64,000 nt of DNA from Escherichia coli (GTDB lineage Bacteria; Pseudomonadota; Gammaproteobacteria; Enterobacterales; Enterobacteriaceae), in assembly GCF_016903815.1 (NCBI RefSeq), contig NZ_CP069973.1; one strand, given 5' to 3'. Below the pieces are notes generated by a model. It saw only the letters and a program-made list of their open reading frames with translations. It did not search any database and had not been told where the DNA came from. Positions 19,075-28,351 of this stretch are shown here, in pieces. Positions within the stretch are counted from its first letter, which is position 1; each line of letters starts with the position of its first letter. The position numbers and the translations under genes were made by a program.

Positions 19075-20337
19075 ATGGCACTGACTGACGCAAAAATCCG
19101 GGCTGCAAAGCCCACTGACAAGGCTTATAAACTTACTGACGGGGCCGGCATGTTCCTGCTGGTTCATCCTAATGGTTCCCGTTACTGGCGTCTCCGTTAT
19201 CGTATTCTGGGTAAGGAGAAGACTCTGGCACTTGGTGTGTATCCAGAAGTTTCTCTCTCCGAAGCTCGTACAAAACGGGATGAGGCCCGAAAACTGATTT
19301 CGGAGGGGGTTGACCCTTGCGAACAGAAAAGAGCTAAAAAAGTTGTCCCTGATTTACAGCTCTCTTTTGAACATATTGCACGACGCTGGCATGCCAGTAA
19401 TAAACAATGGGCACAATCACACAGCGATAAAGTACTCAAAAGCCTCGAGACACACGTTTTCCCCTTTATCGGCAACCGGGATATCACAACACTCAATACC
19501 CCGGACCTGCTTATCCCTGTTCGTGCTGCAGAAGCTAAACAAATTTATGAAATCGCCAGTCGTCTGCAGCAAAGAATATCTGCTGTAATGCGTTATGCCG
19601 TACAGTCTGGCATCATCAGATATAACCCGGCTCTGGATATGGCTGGTGCATTGACCACGGTAAAACGCCAGCATCGCCCTGCTCTGGATCTTTCACGCCT
19701 GCCTGAACTTCTGTCGCGTATTGACGGTTATAAAGGCCAGCCTGTCACCCGACTGGCAGTTATGCTGAATTTACTGGTTTTTATTCGTTCCAGTGAACTC
19801 AGATATGCCCGCTGGTCTGAAATTGATATTGACAATGCCATGTGGACTATTCCAGCCGAACGCGAACCTCTGCCGGGCGTAAAATACTCACACCGGGGCT
19901 CCAAGATGCGAACACCACATCTTGTGCCACTCAGCCAACAGGCTGTAGCCATACTGACAGAACTTCAGACATGGGCAGGTGAAAATGGTCTGATATTTAC
20001 GGGTGCACATGACCCGCGTAAACCAATCAGTGAAAATACTGTAAATAAAGCCCTCAGGGTGATGGGGTATGACACAACCCGGGAAGTCTGTGGCCATGGA
20101 TTCCGGGCGATGGCGTGCAGTGCATTGATTGAATCAGGTTTGTGGTCCCGCGATGCTGTGGAACGTCAGATGAGCCATCAGGAGCGTAATGGTGTACGTG
20201 CTGCGTATATCCATAAAGCAGAACATCTGGAAGAACGTCGACTGATGCTACAGTGGTGGGCAGATTTTCTGGATGCGAACAGAGAACAATGTATCAGCCC
20301 GTTTGAATATGCAAAGATTAACAATCCATTAAAATAG
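19075..20337 (+). CDS. P4-type tyrosine integrase
   Basis: 420-aa ORF, N-terminus MALTDAKIRAAKPTDKAYKLTDGAGMFLLVHPNGSRYWRLRYR typical of P4/CP4 integrases, adjacent to tRNA. Confidence 0.9.
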   Translation: MALTDAKIRAAKPTDKAYKLTDGAGMFLLVHPNGSRYWRLRYRILGKEKTLALGVYPEVSLSEARTKRDEARKLISEGVDPCEQKRAKKVVPDLQLSFEHIARRWHASNKQWAQSHSDKVLKSLETHVFPFIGNRDITTLNTPDLLIPVRAAEAKQIYEIASRLQQRISAVMRYAVQSGIIRYNPALDMAGALTTVKRQHRPALDLSRLPELLSRIDGYKGQPVTRLAVMLNLLVFIRSSELRYARWSEIDIDNAMWTIPAEREPLPGVKYSHRGSKMRTPHLVPLSQQAVAILTELQTWAGENGLIFTGAHDPRKPISENTVNKALRVMGYDTTREVCGHGFRAMACSALIESGLWSRDAVERQMSHQERNGVRAAYIHKAEHLEERRLMLQWWADFLDANREQCISPFEYAKINNPLK

Positions 20338-20433
20338 TAATCATCCCGGGCTGCCAGCCCGGGAATTGTTTTATGAATATTTTTCTTTGTGAGTAACCGG
20401 AAAAAAGATAGCGAAATAAATTACTTTAATGAA

Positions 20434-22038
20434 TTACTCCAGGGTTTCATTAAAGTTCTTTCGTAATACTTTGTAGTCAAACACGTTATGACTGGCATCA
20501 AAAACCACGGATTTCCCCTGCCAGCGGGTAATCACCTCCTCCGGCGTTTTCGGTTGAGCCGGTCTGGTTACGCCCATCCATGCATTAATCAGATAATCAT
20601 TATACGCAGTGGAAAAAACGCTGTTCACCGTCTGGCGATCGACATGCTCTCCCAGTGTCGGGCTGTACCAGATAAACATCGGAACATGATAAGCCTGCTG
20701 ACTGGGTTTTATTCCACCATGAAAATAGGCATGTTCTTTTGTCGGGTCATACTCCAGACCGTGATCTGAAAAATACATGACTGATGCCCGACGCGTTTCC
20801 AGCATGGCGAAAATCTGTCCCAACAAACTGTCGGTATAATGAATGGAATTATCGTAGCAGACTTCTTCTGTATCCAGCGGTTTAAACACGGCTTTATCTC
20901 TGGGCCAGTTACTGCAGACTGGCTCATGACTGCCCGTCAAATGCAGAACAATCAGTTTCCTGCCTCCCGGATTACTGTTCAGTGCTTCAGCCAGGTGTGG
21001 GAGCAGTAACTCATCATAGCCTCTGACATAAATTCTGTTTCTGGCCCGCATGGCGATACTGGCCACAGCCGTTCCGTTCTGTCGGAAAGCGGACTGCGCA
21101 CTGAGCCACCAGGTATCGAACCCCGCCTGATTCGCCATGTTGATAATGTTATCAGGGTAATTACGGATATCATGATGCAGTACACTATCGGCAGATAACG
21201 CCAGTGGAACAGCCAGCGCGGTGTAAGGTGCGCCACTGATTGCCTGAGTGAACAGTTTCAGTCGTGATTTCTGTTTCTGAAGCTCTGGTGTGGTAGGGCG
21301 CGAATACCCGTAAATGGACATGTTATCAGTCCTTGCAGATTCACCAATCACCAGAACAAATACGTCAGTGTTGTTATCCGTAATCACCAGATCGTAGTGA
21401 GGTATGGTATCAGCAATCGTCATTAATCTCTGATGCTCCTTTGCGGCCAGTGCAAAATAGTTCAGATTAAAGAAAGGGGTATATGTGGCAAACCGGGAAG
21501 CGACTATGTAAGGATCAACTTCATTTATTTGATACTGTTTCTTCAACGCAAACTGGAAGGAAGAATATAACGTTACTGTAATTAACAATAAAAATGTAAT
21601 TACCGTGACCTTTTCCGATGGCAATGAGGACGTTTTATTTATTGCTGAACAGAAGAACAATAAAAAGAGGATAATAAATGCGATAACATAAACAACATAC
21701 ATCCTGAACATTCTTATTGCTTCATCAGGATCTGTCTGTAGGATACTGATTGCAAAACCATCATTGAATGTGGTGTCAAATGTACACCATGAATACAGGC
21801 TGATACTGATATCTGCCGCGGTCAGTAATGTGAACGGAAAGGCCAGAATAAAACGCAGCGTAAGCGATTTCATCGCCTTAATAATAAGAATTGCCAGGAT
21901 AAAGAATAACACCCGGTAGATCAGATGTGCTCCTGAGGATACCAGGAGATTAGAAAGAGTAAAGACACCCACAGATAACACGAGGCACTTATCATTGCAA
22001 ATCCGCGGCCAGTGTATGAACGGAAGATTAATTTTCAT
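20434..22038 (-). CDS. sulfatase-family phosphoethanolamine transferase-like inner membrane protein
   Basis: N-terminal multi-TM region plus VLVIGESARTDNMSIYGY motif typical of PEtN transferases; start (MKINLPF) uncertain. Confidence 0.7.
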   Translation of the reverse strand: MKINLPFIHWPRICNDKCLVLSVGVFTLSNLLVSSGAHLIYRVLFFILAILIIKAMKSLTLRFILAFPFTLLTAADISISLYSWCTFDTTFNDGFAISILQTDPDEAIRMFRMYVVYVIAFIILFLLFFCSAINKTSSLPSEKVTVITFLLLITVTLYSSFQFALKKQYQINEVDPYIVASRFATYTPFFNLNYFALAAKEHQRLMTIADTIPHYDLVITDNNTDVFVLVIGESARTDNMSIYGYSRPTTPELQKQKSRLKLFTQAISGAPYTALAVPLALSADSVLHHDIRNYPDNIINMANQAGFDTWWLSAQSAFRQNGTAVASIAMRARNRIYVRGYDELLLPHLAEALNSNPGGRKLIVLHLTGSHEPVCSNWPRDKAVFKPLDTEEVCYDNSIHYTDSLLGQIFAMLETRRASVMYFSDHGLEYDPTKEHAYFHGGIKPSQQAYHVPMFIWYSPTLGEHVDRQTVNSVFSTAYNDYLINAWMGVTRPAQPKTPEEVITRWQGKSVVFDASHNVFDYKVLRKNFNETLE

Positions 22039-22159
22039 AATAATTGTGTAAAAGCGATATTTCTGTCCGGCACTGGTCGCTGAACATGCCGTGACAGGTG
22101 AATTCATTATTTTGAATAATCATAAAGCCGCCACAAATGTAGCGGCGTAAACAGGAGCG

Positions 22160-22444
22160 TCATGATGTTTTCTTTCGTGACAGAAGAGAACGGCACATAC
22201 CGCCCGCAATCATTATCATCAGGAATAACATCCCCAGGCCAACGATTACTCTTAATGCCGGATGAACCCGATCGGCGAGAAAAAATAACTCCATCCCGAA
22301 ACCAATAACAAGCCAGACCAGCGCCATTCCGACGAGCCCTTTTAACAGCAATCTCACGATCCTCTCCTTCTGCGTTCTTAACGAAAATGCCTTACAATAA
22401 CAGCAGCCGGAGAAAGCAACGCTGGCTGCTGAACGGAATGACAT
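22160..22444 (-). CDS. small hydrophobic protein (hypothetical)
   Basis: 94-aa ORF with TM-like stretch LVGMALVWLVIGFGMELFFL; last gene of the WYL cassette string. Confidence 0.35.
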   Translation of the reverse strand: MSFRSAASVAFSGCCYCKAFSLRTQKERIVRLLLKGLVGMALVWLVIGFGMELFFLADRVHPALRVIVGLGMLFLMIMIAGGMCRSLLSRKKTS

Positions 22445-22496
22445 TTTACTGTTTTATGTTCTCTCAGTTTCTATCCTGACGCCGCCATTAATGGCA

Positions 22497-22763
22497 TTAC
22501 AGTTTATTCAGAATAAGGCAGGCGGCCCGGTTTAATGCAATAAACTCCTGCCAGCTGTACTGAGACTGATAATTCAGTAAATACTGGTCTTCAACCCGGC
22601 AAATCTGTGGGCGTTTATCATAAATTGCACACAAATGAGAATCAGTCTGATAGTGACGGCAAATACCGTCACCACGATCCAGACATTGCGTTTCACCCGC
22701 CCTGTTGACATGACGACAACAGGCCCCACACTGGTTACAGGGAAATGGAGGGTGTAATTTCAT
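22497..22763 (-). CDS. YkgJ-family Cys-cluster (zinc/iron-chelating) protein
   Basis: CNQCGACC ... C-x-C motifs in 88-aa ORF; 4-nt overlap with upstream gene. Confidence 0.7.
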   Translation of the reverse strand: MKLHPPFPCNQCGACCRHVNRAGETQCLDRGDGICRHYQTDSHLCAIYDKRPQICRVEDQYLLNYQSQYSWQEFIALNRAACLILNKL

Positions 22764-24331
22764 CGCTTATTTAACCAGTCACGAACAGAAGCCACATTTC
22801 CTGACTCAAACGGCAACGCAATCCCTCGTCGGCTGACTTCTTCTCTCAGCAGAAGTCCGCGCTCTATCTCACTGTTTACGCTATCCAGATGAAGTGAAAA
22901 ATGATTTAACGCGGCAGCATCAACAGAAAATTCCAGTGCAGTAAGTTCCACAAGATAGCGATCAAGTTCAGCATTGACTGCCTGAAAGTATTCCAGTGAC
23001 CGCTGGAATTTGTCCTTAAATTTGTCCAGAAATGCCCATACCCGCTGCATAACCTCGCTATATTCGAGATAATAATTCATCACCAGCCCGAGAATACCTG
23101 TCGTCAGCGCACCACAAAAGGCAGCAAGCTCTGAACCAAATGGAAAAATAAGGATCTGCGCCATCGCCTCATTTATCATCACCCCACCGGCAACAGCCAC
23201 ACCTGCTGCTATCAGTTTAGTGACCGCTTTGGCTAACTGCCCCGGCGATAATCCCTCCGGGTTAAATACCAGGACTTTAAAGGCCTGAACGAGGTTGTTC
23301 CACATTTCCCTGATAAGCCGGACAATCATTCTTTCCGTCGTCAGGAATATATTTAACAGCGTTGTGGTAATACCTGACAGTATCCCTCCGATGACACCAT
23401 CTTTAAAGGCAATTAAAAAAGAACTGAATTTTTCCTGTACTCGTTCCTGGCAGGCACGTAATGCTGACGTTATTTCGGACAGGCATTTGCCGGCGCAGAA
23501 TGAGTTCCGTTGCTGTCTGATAATATGCGGGATTCGTTCCCTCAGTTCGAACCAGATCTCGGCAAGAATAAGCCCCAGCATCTGTCGCGTCCCCATACGA
23601 AAACCGGAATTAAGTGAAGCACTGGCGACAGCAGTAGCAAACTTACTACTCAGGTAATAGCTCTGATTAATCGTGGTCTCGTATTTTTCCCGGGCATATT
23701 TATCAGCCCTTTCCATACGCTCAGTATCTGCATCAGCTTTTTTTCTCAGACTTATCAGACGTTTCTTTTCTTTTTCTGTCAGTGTTGCCTGAGATTCAAG
23801 CTCTGCTATCTGCCTTAACGTATCTTCTCTGTTTTTCTGCAGCGTGCAAATAAACGCATCCATTGAGTCTGCTTTCTTTGATTTATTGAGCGACTCATGA
23901 GTGAATGCCAGATTTGAAGCGTCATTTGCCAGTTCTGCACCATCCCGTTCAGCAAGAATTCTCCCCGGATCATCATGAATTTCTTTAGCGGAAATAATAT
24001 GATCCAGATTTTTTTTATCGTCTGAAGCAAACACTTCGCCTGTATATGCATCAGTAAGAGTCCCTGACTGATGTGCACGCTTTCCTTTCCGGTTCGTCGC
24101 GATGTAGTTCTCATGGCTGTGGTAATGATGAGAATCATAGTCGCCACGACCTTCATACCGCTGTCGCTCAGCCTCCGTGGCATAAATGCCATTACGCACA
24201 TTATGGATAGTGTCAACATCACCACCCTTACGATCATTTAGCAACAGAAAATCCAGCCCGAATGATGCAACCAGGCTCTTCACCATGGTCTGATGTAACT
24301 CTTCTGCCCAGTCAAATTTTTCCACATTCAT
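22760..24331 (-). CDS. hypothetical 523-aa protein, soluble His/Asp-rich N-domain plus C-terminal multi-TM region
   Basis: ORF translation; N-terminal motifs GGDVDTIHNV, DHIISAKEIHDDPGR; hydrophobic helices in C-terminal half. Confidence 0.6.
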   Translation of the reverse strand: MNVEKFDWAEELHQTMVKSLVASFGLDFLLLNDRKGGDVDTIHNVRNGIYATEAERQRYEGRGDYDSHHYHSHENYIATNRKGKRAHQSGTLTDAYTGEVFASDDKKNLDHIISAKEIHDDPGRILAERDGAELANDASNLAFTHESLNKSKKADSMDAFICTLQKNREDTLRQIAELESQATLTEKEKKRLISLRKKADADTERMERADKYAREKYETTINQSYYLSSKFATAVASASLNSGFRMGTRQMLGLILAEIWFELRERIPHIIRQQRNSFCAGKCLSEITSALRACQERVQEKFSSFLIAFKDGVIGGILSGITTTLLNIFLTTERMIVRLIREMWNNLVQAFKVLVFNPEGLSPGQLAKAVTKLIAAGVAVAGGVMINEAMAQILIFPFGSELAAFCGALTTGILGLVMNYYLEYSEVMQRVWAFLDKFKDKFQRSLEYFQAVNAELDRYLVELTALEFSVDAAALNHFSLHLDSVNSEIERGLLLREEVSRRGIALPFESGNVASVRDWLNKR

Positions 24332-24377
24332 GTTATTTCACTTCTTGTAAAGCCGGGCTTTAACGCCCGGTAAATCA

Positions 24378-25457
24378 TTAACTCCGGGATGAAAAATCAT
24401 CAAATTTCACAACCGAACTGGCCAGTACATCATCCAGCTCTTCCTTATTAATAACATTCATTCCATTATCATCCTTTTCCATTTCAATAACGTTATCTTT
24501 TATCACAGCCTCACCATTTTCCTGTTTCCGCGGTTTAAACAGTGGCGTTGTAATAATATCCGTCATAATAGCGGCCAGTGAATATCCATGGTCAATAAGC
24601 ATAATGATTTCATCTGATACATTGATATCCTGTTGTTCTGTAATAACAGAATGCATGGATTTAAGCGGCTCAAAATAGTGTTTAATAAATACAGCATGCA
24701 TTCTGTTCAGCGCAGCGAGAATTTCATCAACGTATTGATTAACTTTTGCAAAATGCTCCCGGGCCAGATTCATTTTCTTAACTGCCCGTTCAACTTTGCA
24801 GGCACACTGATGGGCATTTTCAAGAGCTTTCGTCGCGTGTCTGTCGTAAGCCCAGCCCGCAATGGCAATCAACGGTGCAGCCACTGCGGTGCCTAATACC
24901 ATTGCGCCGCCGGCCATTCCCATGCCCCCTGCCGCGAGAGAGCCCCCTCCAATTGCCGCCATCGTCGCGTTATAAGCCGCGGCACCAGAAAGCGCTGCAA
25001 TGGGTGTACCTGTGGAAGCCGCAGCAAATGCCATCACTCCGCTATACACAGCAAAACCCGCAGCAGCCCCGGAAACTCCGGCAGCTACGACCGTACTGAG
25101 ATATTCTGTTGCTGAAATGGCCAGGTTATGAATCTTATTGATGTTATGTTGCGGGACACTCAGTTTCAGGTCTTTATTGCCCTCTTTTTCCAGACGCGCC
25201 AGGAGCTCAGCAGCAATCCTGTCGAACTCACTGAAATCTTTACCAATCTCAAGCTCTTTATTTCCGAGCGTTGTTAATTTTGATGATGTCTGAGCTTCAG
25301 CCTGCTCAAATTTTCCTTTATGCTCCTCGTAACGCTCTTTTGCTTTTTCGAGCACATCCTCTGCTTCTGACTTTTTTTGATATCCATCGTAAGCTTTTTT
25401 TCCGCCGAATGCCGCAGCGCCGGCAGCCACACCCAAAATAATGAAAGGTAACGCCAT
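24378..25457 (-). CDS. hypothetical membrane protein with Gly/Ala-rich glycine-zipper-like TM segment
   Basis: N-terminal TM MALPFIILGVAAGAAAF, coiled-coil-like charged region, Gly/Ala-rich stretch; AGGAGG RBS. Confidence 0.6.
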   Translation of the reverse strand: MALPFIILGVAAGAAAFGGKKAYDGYQKKSEAEDVLEKAKERYEEHKGKFEQAEAQTSSKLTTLGNKELEIGKDFSEFDRIAAELLARLEKEGNKDLKLSVPQHNINKIHNLAISATEYLSTVVAAGVSGAAAGFAVYSGVMAFAAASTGTPIAALSGAAAYNATMAAIGGGSLAAGGMGMAGGAMVLGTAVAAPLIAIAGWAYDRHATKALENAHQCACKVERAVKKMNLAREHFAKVNQYVDEILAALNRMHAVFIKHYFEPLKSMHSVITEQQDINVSDEIIMLIDHGYSLAAIMTDIITTPLFKPRKQENGEAVIKDNVIEMEKDDNGMNVINKEELDDVLASSVVKFDDFSSRS

Positions 25458-25495
25458 TCTTTTCCTCCTGTACAGGTTGCTTTATCATCAGTCAA

Positions 25496-25509
25496 CTGAA
25501 ATATTTCAG
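25496..25509. promoter_or_regulatory. 14-bp perfect palindrome CTGAAATATTTCAG between regulator and downstream gene
   Basis: Seen directly; overlaps regulator stop codon, about 40 bp upstream of next start. Confidence 0.3.
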
Positions 25510-26402
25510 GAAACATTCTCAGCGGTGAGGTATTTTCCTAACATTGTTAACACGGCTTCTTTCAACCATACTGGTTCAATAATTTCAACATTCGGTAGCC
25601 AGTATAAAATCAACGGGATAATTTGATTTTTATGTGCAGCCTTGCATGACAGCGTAATGCCATTATCATGTCTGTGTAGCAATTGCTGGTAAGGAAGTAA
25701 GTCCCGTCGCAAAAAATAATGGGCGATATTACTGTGAATGAACAACACTACATCAAATGTTTTGTCGCTCACCCACGGGTCACATGACTCACTTATCAGT
25801 GACTGTATTTCCTCACTCTTTGCAAACTTTTCTTTTTTTATATCCAGCCATTTTATTTTAGCTAATGAAAACGACTTTAACTTGTTCTCTTCAGTAGCCA
25901 GCAAATACCATATACTTCTCTGATTAGTTAATTTATAGGGATGAACGATTCTGGTCTTACCGGCATATGCAATCTGACAAATATTACTGTTGCGGATCGC
26001 TTTTTCAAGAACATCAAGATATTTTCTTAAATCATCCCTGATAGTGTGCTCAGGGTTATGAAACTGAACACGAATATGCTTTTCGGTTGCCCTGTTTTCT
26101 AATTTCTGCCAGAAACCTTCATCCCGTTCAGGAAAAATCGCATCAGTATCCAGTAACCTGGCCAGAGATTTGTGCAGTGATCCTTTGCTCTGGTTTCCTG
26201 CTCTTGCTGAAATAAGCCGGTATTTTCCATCGCCACAGGCTTCAATAAAGGGAGAAAGCATATTCAGATCACGATATGCTGTTCGCTCAGTGATGTTGTA
26301 TTTTTTCATCAAATTATGACGACTGACCACGCCATAATTCTGTAATTCAACAAGGATATCAATCAAACGCTCCGCTGAGCGATTTCTCGTTGAGTCAGCC
26401 AT
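25506..26402 (-). CDS. WYL-domain transcriptional regulator (HTH-WYL-WCX type)
   Basis: N-terminal HTH-like segment, WYL signature RSIWYLLATEENKLKSFSLAKI. Confidence 0.75.
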   Translation of the reverse strand: MADSTRNRSAERLIDILVELQNYGVVSRHNLMKKYNITERTAYRDLNMLSPFIEACGDGKYRLISARAGNQSKGSLHKSLARLLDTDAIFPERDEGFWQKLENRATEKHIRVQFHNPEHTIRDDLRKYLDVLEKAIRNSNICQIAYAGKTRIVHPYKLTNQRSIWYLLATEENKLKSFSLAKIKWLDIKKEKFAKSEEIQSLISESCDPWVSDKTFDVVLFIHSNIAHYFLRRDLLPYQQLLHRHDNGITLSCKAAHKNQIIPLILYWLPNVEIIEPVWLKEAVLTMLGKYLTAENVS

Positions 26403-26455
26403 AAATCACTGCACCTGTAGTATTACTCTTGTGTAAGTGAATTATATAAATACTC

Positions 26456-26472
26456 CTGACATCATTTGTCAG
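26456..26472. promoter_or_regulatory. inverted repeat CTGACAtcattTGTCAG upstream of WYL regulator
   Basis: Seen directly, about 55 bp upstream of regulator start; half-site resembles the 25496 palindrome. Confidence 0.3.
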
Positions 26473-26821
26473 TTCCACAAAACTACGCCCTCCGGCAACA
26501 GATTTTTATTTGATTATGTTCAAACTTTAAACCAGATGTCCGGGAGCCTCCTTCGTAATACGGTTTATTGTTTCCGGAAGGGCTGATATGACAAAAAACA
26601 ACGTGTCCCAACAACAGTCCTTTTTCATTTAACAGACTGACAACCATACTGCGCGCTACCTGCCCCCTGTAAAAAATCAACGAGAGTAATATTTTTGCTC
26701 TATTTATATTTCATTCATCTGAAATTATTAGTTGCCAGAGGGAGAATATCATCAGGATATCTGTTATTGATTTGTCATACCTGCACTTTACTGTGCTCCA
26801 AAGCGCAGGCAGAAATGGCCA

Positions 26822-27559
26822 TCAGAAGTTATATGTTGCACCTAACATAAACTCATTACTTCTGACATCAACAGAGGATTTATATTTAGCGCCATCCTCA
26901 TCTTTATAAGTCAGAGTGGAATCCCCTGCATCCAGATACCGGTAACTGAGGTCAAGGCTGAAATCCTGCGTCACATCGTATTTAACACCGACACCAAGGC
27001 TCCATGCCAGGTTATTTTCGTATTTTGACGCTGAAGCTGAATATACTTCACTGCCTGCCGGACTGTTATCGGTATATATGTACGAAGTTTTATGATGAAC
27101 CCGAGCATAACCCAGACCAGCAGATATCCATGGCGTGAATGCACTGCTGTTTCTGAAATCATAATACGCATTCAGCATCAGCGTGTTTACACTGAGCTTG
27201 TTCTGTGCATCATCAAACTCGGCACCACCGACACTTTCCCAATAACTCAGACGATATTTTGATTCAGCGTTACCGCGGCCATAAAACTCCACTTCAGTAC
27301 GCACCGGCACATTGTAGTGCTGATAAAAATCGTATCCCACCGCAAGGCCTGCGCCAAAAACCGTATCACTTTTGTCACCGCCTTTATATTTATCCGCCCA
27401 TGCCCCTTCACCATCAACGAAACGTTGCTCTGAAAGTGACATAACAGAAGCACCTGCTTTACCGGTCACATAAAAGCCTGTTTTGCTCTCATCAGCCAGA
27501 GTCTGGGCCGAAAACATGCCTGCCATTGCAAGCGCTGAAACCGCAATAACCTTTTTCAT
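26822..27559 (-). CDS. outer membrane beta-barrel protein (Tia/Hek/Hra-like adhesin-invasin family)
   Basis: Signal peptide MKKVIAVSALAMAGMFSAQTLA, alternating aromatic beta-strand pattern, C-terminal ...LGATYNF. Confidence 0.7.
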   Translation of the reverse strand: MKKVIAVSALAMAGMFSAQTLADESKTGFYVTGKAGASVMSLSEQRFVDGEGAWADKYKGGDKSDTVFGAGLAVGYDFYQHYNVPVRTEVEFYGRGNAESKYRLSYWESVGGAEFDDAQNKLSVNTLMLNAYYDFRNSSAFTPWISAGLGYARVHHKTSYIYTDNSPAGSEVYSASASKYENNLAWSLGVGVKYDVTQDFSLDLSYRYLDAGDSTLTYKDEDGAKYKSSVDVRSNEFMLGATYNF

Positions 27560-27877
27560 TTCAATCATCTCCGTTGGTTCTTGCCCTACCCGACAAAGAG
27601 GGTTGCCTATTTTAAAACCATGCAAAAGACAGGGTAAAATGGTTACAACCGATCGATGTGATCATATCGATCGGTAAAATCGATCGATATTGGTGAGGGT
27701 TTTCGTTTCGAATCAACAAAATGGTAATGATGGGGCCCGGACTGAAATGCTGTGTCCCAGAAGCCCGGAAGGTTTGCATTACAACTGCACCACAGTACAA
27801 AATGTCAGACACAGTAAAAAAGACTGGGTAATCAACCCACCAGAGAAAACACGTTTATTGCAAAAGAGAGGGGAATT

Positions 27878-28351
27878 ATGTGCAAACTGACTAAAGAAGA
27901 AGAATACAGCATCATCAGTCGGACAATGACGAATATTCGTTCACTACGCACGTATGTACGCGAACTTGATTTTGAGCAATTACTCGACATGCAGGAAAAG
28001 CTCAACACTGTTATTGAAGAACGCCGTGAAGATGCTGAACGAAAAGCGGCTGAACGTAAGGAACTGGAAACTAAATGTCAACAGGTATTTGAGTACATCG
28101 TTTCTGTGGGGCTTGACCCGGAAGAATGGCAGGGTCCAGTTTCTGCTATTGCAGGGACAACGGAAACCAAACGAAAACCCAAAGGCGGTGTGAGAAAAGC
28201 GAAATATATCTTTGAGGATGAGAACGGCGAAACCAGGACGTGGTCTGGTAACGGTAAAATGCCACTTGCTTTGCGGAAACAGGTTAATGGAGATTGTACC
28301 CTGGAAACTTTCCTCATTGAAAAACCCAATCAACATGAACAAAGTGAATAA
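27878..28351 (+). CDS. H-NS family nucleoid protein paralog
   Basis: Translation aligns by eye with H-NS (NIRSLRTYVRELDFEQLLDM...; AKYIFEDENGETRTWSGNGKMP). Confidence 0.8.
   Translation: MCKLTKEEEYSIISRTMTNIRSLRTYVRELDFEQLLDMQEKLNTVIEERREDAERKAAERKELETKCQQVFEYIVSVGLDPEEWQGPVSAIAGTTETKRKPKGGVRKAKYIFEDENGETRTWSGNGKMPLALRKQVNGDCTLETFLIEKPNQHEQSE

Follow-up and report, generated by a model that had tools for sequence, protein, structure and literature searches.

A short GC-rich stem-loop separates genes A and B of a WYL-regulated operon in Escherichia coli, and it is probably a functional intercistronic RNA element that works by leaky termination, by blocking 3' decay or by both, and keeps the output of A above that of B and C. 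The stem-loop recurs behind gene A in related operons through extensive turnover of its sequence, carries the marks of an RNA on the sense strand, leaves no room for a promoter ahead of B and stands between a gene with a strong Shine–Dalgarno (SD) sequence and a gene with a weaker one. How it would alter transcript levels, and which of the two routes would dominate, we infer from sequence features.

The operon is on the minus strand of the 64,000-nucleotide window that we analyzed, in an E. coli chromosomal island that adjoins tRNA-Phe and an integrase gene. Its first gene (25506..26402) encodes an HTH-WYL-WCX regulator, identified by Pfam (WYL, 6.8e-09; WCX, 1.1e-07; HTH, 3e-04) and PADLOC (WYL, 9.2e-23) matches. 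Gene A (24378..25457, 359 aa) follows, with the strong SD AGGAGG at 25464..25469 and a TAA stop at 24380..24378. After the 46-nt A-B intercistronic spacer (24332..24377) come gene B (22760..24331, 523 aa; ATG at 24331..24329) and gene C (22497..22763, corresponding to 8098-8364 of locus L001), which encodes an 88-aa CxxCxxCC protein (PF03692, E 1.5e-05) and whose start overlaps the B stop by 4 nt. The transcription unit probably ends at a terminator-like hairpin (22127..22146, minus strand) that follows a small ORF at 22160-22444.

This ORF (minus strand) is very hydrophobic, its longest version having 94 aa and the RefSeq version 65 aa; it follows C solely in E. coli, and the other loci have no homologue of it. 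RefSeq annotates no CDS for gene C in strain 222; the gene is kept after B in nearly all of the 76 loci described below. Of 5426 complete E. coli genomes, 487 carry the cassette, on the chromosome every time, and the median copy number of its 901-bp region is 1 per genome. In strain c1-17 (NZ_CP189959.1 / NZ_AP040898.1) an IS4-like ISVsa5 transposase divides the cassette match in two, and the name 'cobalamin adenosyltransferase' appears twice; an IS element thus appears to interrupt gene B in that strain. The island neighbors of the cassette (20434-22107, 26822-27625 and 27878-28351) are a phosphoethanolamine transferase gene (Sulfatase domain), an outer-membrane protein gene and an H-NS family gene, and sucrose-utilization genes come next in the same island.

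The original prediction had placed a GC hairpin in the 46-bp spacer at 24332-24377, and its sequence and coordinates proved correct. The coding-strand (minus) sequence of the spacer is UGAUUUA-CCGGGC-GUUAAA-GCCCGG-CUUUACAAGAAGUGAAAUAAC, which places the 18-nt hairpin (24353..24370; CCGGGC/GUUAAA/GCCCGG) 7 nt past the TAA of A and 21 nt ahead of the ATG of B, the latter stretch containing the weak SD-like AAGAAG/GAAGUG. The stem is a perfect 6 bp, with G-C pairs throughout, and closes a 6-nt loop. Folding energies agree with this picture: the stop codon plus spacer (49 nt) reached −15.4 kcal/mol (z −3.45), a value that none of 200 shuffles equalled, and the hairpin with 3-nt flanks reached −13.7 kcal/mol. 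A wider stretch of 81 nt folded non-significantly (z −1.47). Furthermore, the 64-kb window holds 24 hits to hairpins of this class, at 18 places, compared with 8.6 hits expected. One such hairpin in 64 kb is therefore unremarkable, and it is the related operons that decide whether we are looking at a functionless chance palindrome, as the abundance of the class and the non-significant 81-nt fold would allow.

Several familiar element types were considered for the E. coli hairpin. Rfam covariance models gave no match at E ≤ 1 over 20000-28000. A REP/BIME repeat was rejected, as the element is single-copy in the window and 18 nt long, compared with the ~35-nt multi-copy consensus. A stimulator of recoding (read-through or frameshift) was also rejected; an in-frame TGA follows the TAA, and spacer lengths of 38-120 nt fall in all frames. 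The island integrase gene has a terminator-like hairpin of its own at 20344-20364 (plus strand; TCCCGGGC-TGCCA-GCCCGGGA followed by a T-rich tail), whose stem core, CCGGGC/GCCCGG, is the same as that of the A-B hairpin, probably by coincidence between GC-rich stems.

For the comparison with related operons, homologues of gene B were aligned, and 76 loci were fetched from contigs representing one genome per species. The loci come from gamma-, beta- and alpha-proteobacteria, with B identities of 39-100%. More than 70 species have the A-B-C trio; the three genes lie side by side on one strand in almost all of the 76 loci, and at least 70 loci keep the adjacency and orientation of A and B. We extracted the A-B spacers (38-120 nt, with gene starts inferred) and scanned them for bulge-free hairpins with loops of up to 12 nt at a threshold of −8 kcal/mol or better. 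A stem-loop at or below −8 kcal/mol was present in 65 of 71 A-B spacers (median −14), and 64 of the 71 beat their own shuffles (p ≤ 0.05). As a control, we took the remaining same-strand spacers of these loci that measure 35-120 nt, of which only 12 of 79 (15%) reached −8 kcal/mol; the difference is highly significant (Fisher p = 9e-23), with the proviso that the loci are phylogenetically related and the counts overstate the number of independent events. Such a contrast with the control spacers, together with the covariation described below, makes the chance palindrome barely credible.

The scan had missed the hairpins of two loci, L058 and L075, which raises the count to 67 of 72 spacers. In L058 (Aeromonas eucrenophila), an apparent A-B fusion turned out to be an artefact of ORF extension, and a TAA stop and a hairpin are present there. 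The remaining 5 of 72 spacers have no hairpin, so the element is not strictly required.

Across the loci, the hairpin has a median stem of 8 bp with a median GC content of 78%, and its position is tied to gene A. It begins a median of 8 nt past the A stop (within 5-9 nt in 41 of 65 loci) and ends 11-53 nt (median 22) ahead of the B start, which in 58 of 65 loci is the more distant of the two codons. Two Firmicutes loci (L077 and L073) have the module in the order B-(x)-C-A rather than A-B-C. In the Caloramator MAG among them (L077, 5902-9250; order B-x-C-A), the junctions measure 2-16 nt and have no hairpins, and a canonical terminator, AATCAGGCA...TGCCTGATT then TTTTATTTT, lies 11 nt past the A stop. 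The hairpin follows A despite the altered order, which suggests, from this single example, that it goes with the 3' end of A.

Could the hairpin instead serve the genes downstream of it? As a translational insulator, the stem-loop would stop ribosomes that finish A from sliding on and re-initiating at B. Alternatively, RNase E would cut upstream of it (GA|UUU) and leave a 5' hairpin that stabilizes the B-C mRNA as in papBA, in which case B-C and not A would be favored. The hairpin does lie between a stop codon and a weak ribosome-binding site, a second weak hairpin is predicted by folding over the SD-like AAGAAG, and the coupling between B and C is tight, whereas a gap divides A from B in every locus. 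By inspection, motifs of the RNase E type (RN|WUU, as quoted in PMC5927463) occur 4 nt upstream of the stem (GA|UUU) and just past it (GC|UUU). On the other hand, this motif is highly degenerate, the hairpin tracks the stop of A and not the start of B, it follows A in the B-x-C-A arrangement, and a modest enrichment of U past the stem suits a 3'-end element. We consider a role for the hairpin in insulating B or in protecting the 5' end of the B-C message doubtful, and favor an element that belongs to the 3' end of A.

The sequence of the stem has changed freely between clades. Its arm reads CCGGGC in the enteric group, GCGGGGCC in Pseudomonas, AAGGTGGC in Photobacterium, TAAGATGC in Moraxella and GTAGCAGT in Providencia, and the loci hold 43 distinct inner stem arms (21 clusters). 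In the Pseudomonas-type group, a sequence-based MAFFT alignment showed compensatory double changes at 5 of 8 pairs, a result that none of 500 shuffles reached. In Enterobacterales, the stem is invariant and covariation is nil; there, the stem is the best-conserved part of the spacer and the sole structure returned by RNAalifold. In five E. coli alleles (1-3% divergent over 901 bp), the SNPs of the spacer affect the loop and the sequence 5' of the stem, never the stem itself. These observations leave room for a sequence-specific role within Enterobacterales, where the stem never varies. Many of the Pseudomonas-type spacers (L015-L027 and related) share another feature, a conserved cATGGAcgcc ~10 nt upstream of the B start; since the annotated proteins start at a downstream ATG, it may be a ribosome-binding region.

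The invariant enteric stem raises the question of whether the element acts as DNA. CCGGGC-N6-GCCCGG is a perfect palindrome, and the E. coli hairpin folds equally stably on either strand, as would be expected of a protein-binding site such as an extra WYL operator. However, other clades keep the structure with a wholly different sequence, and the exact palindrome occurs once in the 64-kb window and is absent upstream of the WYL gene. The strand-specific signals across the loci also point to an RNA structure on the operon transcript. The more stable fold was that of the sense strand in 42 loci and of the antisense strand in 16 (binomial p = 0.0009), G-U pairs being among the RNA-like features. 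Read in the sense direction, 11 of the 32 four-nt loops were of the GNRA, UNCG or CUUG classes, compared with 1 in the antisense direction and 1.6 expected. T made up 42% of the sequence past the stem compared with 30% in the remaining spacer, whereas A ahead of the stem was unenriched (28%). A DNA operator is very improbable in this light. The idea of a hairpin on the coding strand between A and B is thus upheld well beyond E. coli, as a conserved sense-strand RNA structure (65 of 71 loci, covariation, tetraloop polarity).

The translation signals on the two sides of the spacer are unequal. The stronger SD belonged to A in 53 loci and to B in 8 (Wilcoxon p = 1.4e-9); in E. coli, the duplex energies with the anti-SD are −10.3 kcal/mol for A (AGGAGG) and −1.9 kcal/mol for B. 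The B starts used agree with annotated Pseudomonas proteins. An overlap was estimated at the B-C junction in 57 of 68 loci, with 33 nt as the largest gap, whereas A and B were separated in every case. By their junctions, B and C are predicted to be translationally coupled and A and B uncoupled. It had been proposed that the hairpin sets the stoichiometry of the two proteins: the operon design (SD 53 versus 8 loci, B-C coupled, A-B uncoupled) does favor unequal output, and the contribution of the hairpin to it would come through one or both of the routes considered below.

As an intrinsic terminator, the E. coli hairpin is half complete. A GC-rich stem-loop past the stop codon is present (6 G-C pairs, 7 nt after the TAA), and a U-rich tract 3' of the stem is not, the tail CUUUACAAG having 3 U in 8. 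Our consensus terminator scan, which demands at least 5 T in 8, did not call it. We also scored the tails with our own implementation, modeled on TransTermHP; the E. coli tail scored −2.72, a borderline value. A score of −2.5 was reached in 35 of 65 loci (compared with 20% of random 15-mers) and one of −3.5 in 7 of 65. Because strong U-tracts are this rare and the E. coli tail went uncalled, termination may be negligible. Some loci (Photobacterium, Oceanisphaera, Rheinheimera) do have canonical U-tracts. U-tails past A-B hairpins did not differ from those past C hairpins in the 14 loci compared. A strong hairpin within 120 nt past C was found in only 17 of 68 loci, and consequently the most conserved hairpin of the operon is an internal one.

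RNase III substrates need stems longer than 6-10 bp. The stems here measure 6-10 bp (6 bp in E. coli), too short for an RNase III site, which is unlikely. The proposal of a partial terminator or RNA-processing site therefore survives in part: the stem is terminator-like and is followed by a modest rise in U, and processing of the RNase III type is unlikely for a 6-bp stem.

The position right after a stop codon, which is the usual one for a terminator, and the canonical U-tracts of some loci could also mean that a unit made up of A alone ends fully at the hairpin and that B-C have a promoter of their own, located within the last part of A or overlapping the hairpin. There is a promoter-like match within A, at 24582..24553. 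However, such matches occur at chance level in the region (20 compared with 20.1 expected), tails are weak in most loci, the adjacency and orientation of A and B are kept in at least 70 loci, and a promoter upstream of the hairpin would meet the same terminator. A promoter between the hairpin and B was rejected, as merely 11-53 nt are available there. An A-only unit is unlikely for these reasons, and with no room for a promoter downstream of the hairpin, B and C would rely on read-through. Geometry, sequence turnover and conservation are thus what disfavor the terminator of an A-only unit, the DNA palindrome and the chance palindrome.

The hairpin has the structure expected of a protective 3' stem-loop (SRPS), being conserved, stable and directly 3' of one operon cistron, and the GC|UUU match to the degenerate RNase E motif just past the stem would be a possible endonuclease site. 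In E. coli, protective 3' structures, which are often conserved, influence the stoichiometry of operons (PMC5927463), and SRPS stem-loops and internal terminators set subunit ratios (PMC4423207, PMC9045158). We propose that the stem-loop, which closes cistron A in the sense RNA of the operon (regulator, A, hairpin, B/C), frees the output of A from that of the translationally coupled B-C pair behind it by either or both of two non-exclusive routes. In the first, intrinsic termination, leaky because the U-tail is weak, would yield more A than B-C mRNA. In the second, the B-C part would be cleaved and the hairpin would bar 3'-to-5' exonucleases, so that the A segment would be stabilized. With the stem just 7 nt past the A stop, a ribosome terminating on A should cover the 5' arm and would suppress termination during active translation of A. 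A precedent is tR2 in E. coli, where termination falls from ~90% to <10% when a stop codon 28 bp ahead of the terminator is brought to within 5 bp of it, as the ribosome hides the stem (PMC4824070). The short distance between stop and stem and the weak tail incline us to a decay-barrier role in E. coli.

Could the same geometry serve to sense the translational state of the host? The spacing of 5-9 nt between stop and stem in 41 of 65 loci led us to consider a translation-gated attenuator in a candidate defense module. Ribosomes close behind the RNA polymerase would mask the 5' arm and allow read-through into B-C; when translation of A falters, for instance during a phage takeover, the hairpin would form and the output of B-C would change. 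The B-C pair, a membrane protein with an HNH-like motif and a Cys-cluster protein, is possibly toxic. We regard such an attenuator as distinctly improbable. If true, it would give a candidate defense module a built-in sensor of host translation.

The regulator is part of the candidate defense context. A WYL homologue was detected by tblastn in 28 of the 76 fetched loci, and an upstream ORF with Pfam WYL and/or WCX was found in 5 of 10 further loci sampled. HTH-WYL-WCX regulators control defense operons (PMC9122601, PMC9122588), and BrxR/CapW-type regulators (PMC9122601, PMC9122588, PMC11662680) have the same HTH-WYL-WCX architecture as the one that directly precedes candidate defense-family genes here. 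The likeness concerns the cassette context and not the hairpin, and the defense role here is a candidate one. A perfect inverted repeat, CTGACA-AATGA-TGTCAG (26456-26472, minus strand), lies 54 nt upstream of the WYL ATG and adjoins the AT-rich TATATAAT; the regulator gene may have its operator and promoter there.

A matches the PADLOC family PDC-M09A (E 1.7e-22) and B matches PDC-M40B (E 1.8e-42), both unvalidated candidates, and neither protein has a Pfam family. The model of A shows a long helical hairpin around a Gly/Ala-rich hydrophobic segment, with a weak helical resemblance to alpha-pore-forming and Tc toxins (E ~0.02-0.1). AlphaFold models residues 40-225 of B confidently as an N-terminal domain, in which an HNH-like D-H...N...N motif lies, and the C-terminal half of the protein is helical and hydrophobic. 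Domain searches with B gave a weak GmrSD_C/HNH-like hint (E 0.11), and there was no hit by PDB sequence and no significant hit by fold. Both A and B had been described as membrane proteins, which is plausible: hydropathy backs some membrane segments in each (A, 1-19 and 179-204; B, 312-331 and 368-396). In RefSeq, B goes by 'ATP--cob(I)alamin adenosyltransferase' or 'cobalamin adenosyltransferase', and A is in some cases called 'chemotaxis protein'. Pfam and NCBIfam lend no support to these names, which look like propagated misnomers. Literature searches by PADLOC names, RefSeq accessions and domain terms found no papers on the cassette.

Several known intercistronic structures resemble the A-B hairpin. 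The REP hairpins of malE-malF and the genome-wide E. coli set of Dar and Sorek (2018; PMC5927463) likewise place a stable stem-loop, conserved between species, just 3' of the upstream cistron. For these structures, a block to 3' exonucleases that lets the upstream gene outlast the downstream ones was proposed, as we propose here. Unlike the malE-malF REP, the A-B hairpin is single-copy, has 18 nt and lacks the REP consensus, and whereas the structures of the Dar and Sorek set lie mostly inside the downstream ORF, the A-B hairpin is intergenic and known from sequence. The Clostridium cellulosome operon and ABC-transporter operons (PMC4423207, PMC9045158) also have an intercistronic GC-rich hairpin past the cistron expected to be more abundant, with read-through for the downstream genes; they belong to other organisms and gene families, and the E. 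coli A-B hairpin differs in its poor U-tract (3 U in 8). Compared with leaky terminators, the A-B stem, 7 nt past the stop, has the spacing at which ribosomes strongly repress termination (PMC4824070).

The papBA and puf operons also carry hairpins between cistrons, and these decide the fate of processed mRNA segments, that is, which segment survives. The papBA hairpin guards the 5' end of the downstream message, whereas the A-B hairpin tracks the 3' end of A.

The hairpin is an element of a well-known kind, and its general significance is limited. Its interest lies in the module, which occurs in gamma-, beta- and alpha-proteobacteria, is often WYL-regulated and retains a stem-loop behind gene A although the sequence has turned over completely. 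This makes it a natural test case for leaky termination versus a decay barrier. Together, the stem-loop, the strong ribosome-binding site of A and the weak one of B predict that A is needed in excess of B-C, and such an excess would be a clue to how the module works, for example, as an abundant membrane partner with a scarce effector.
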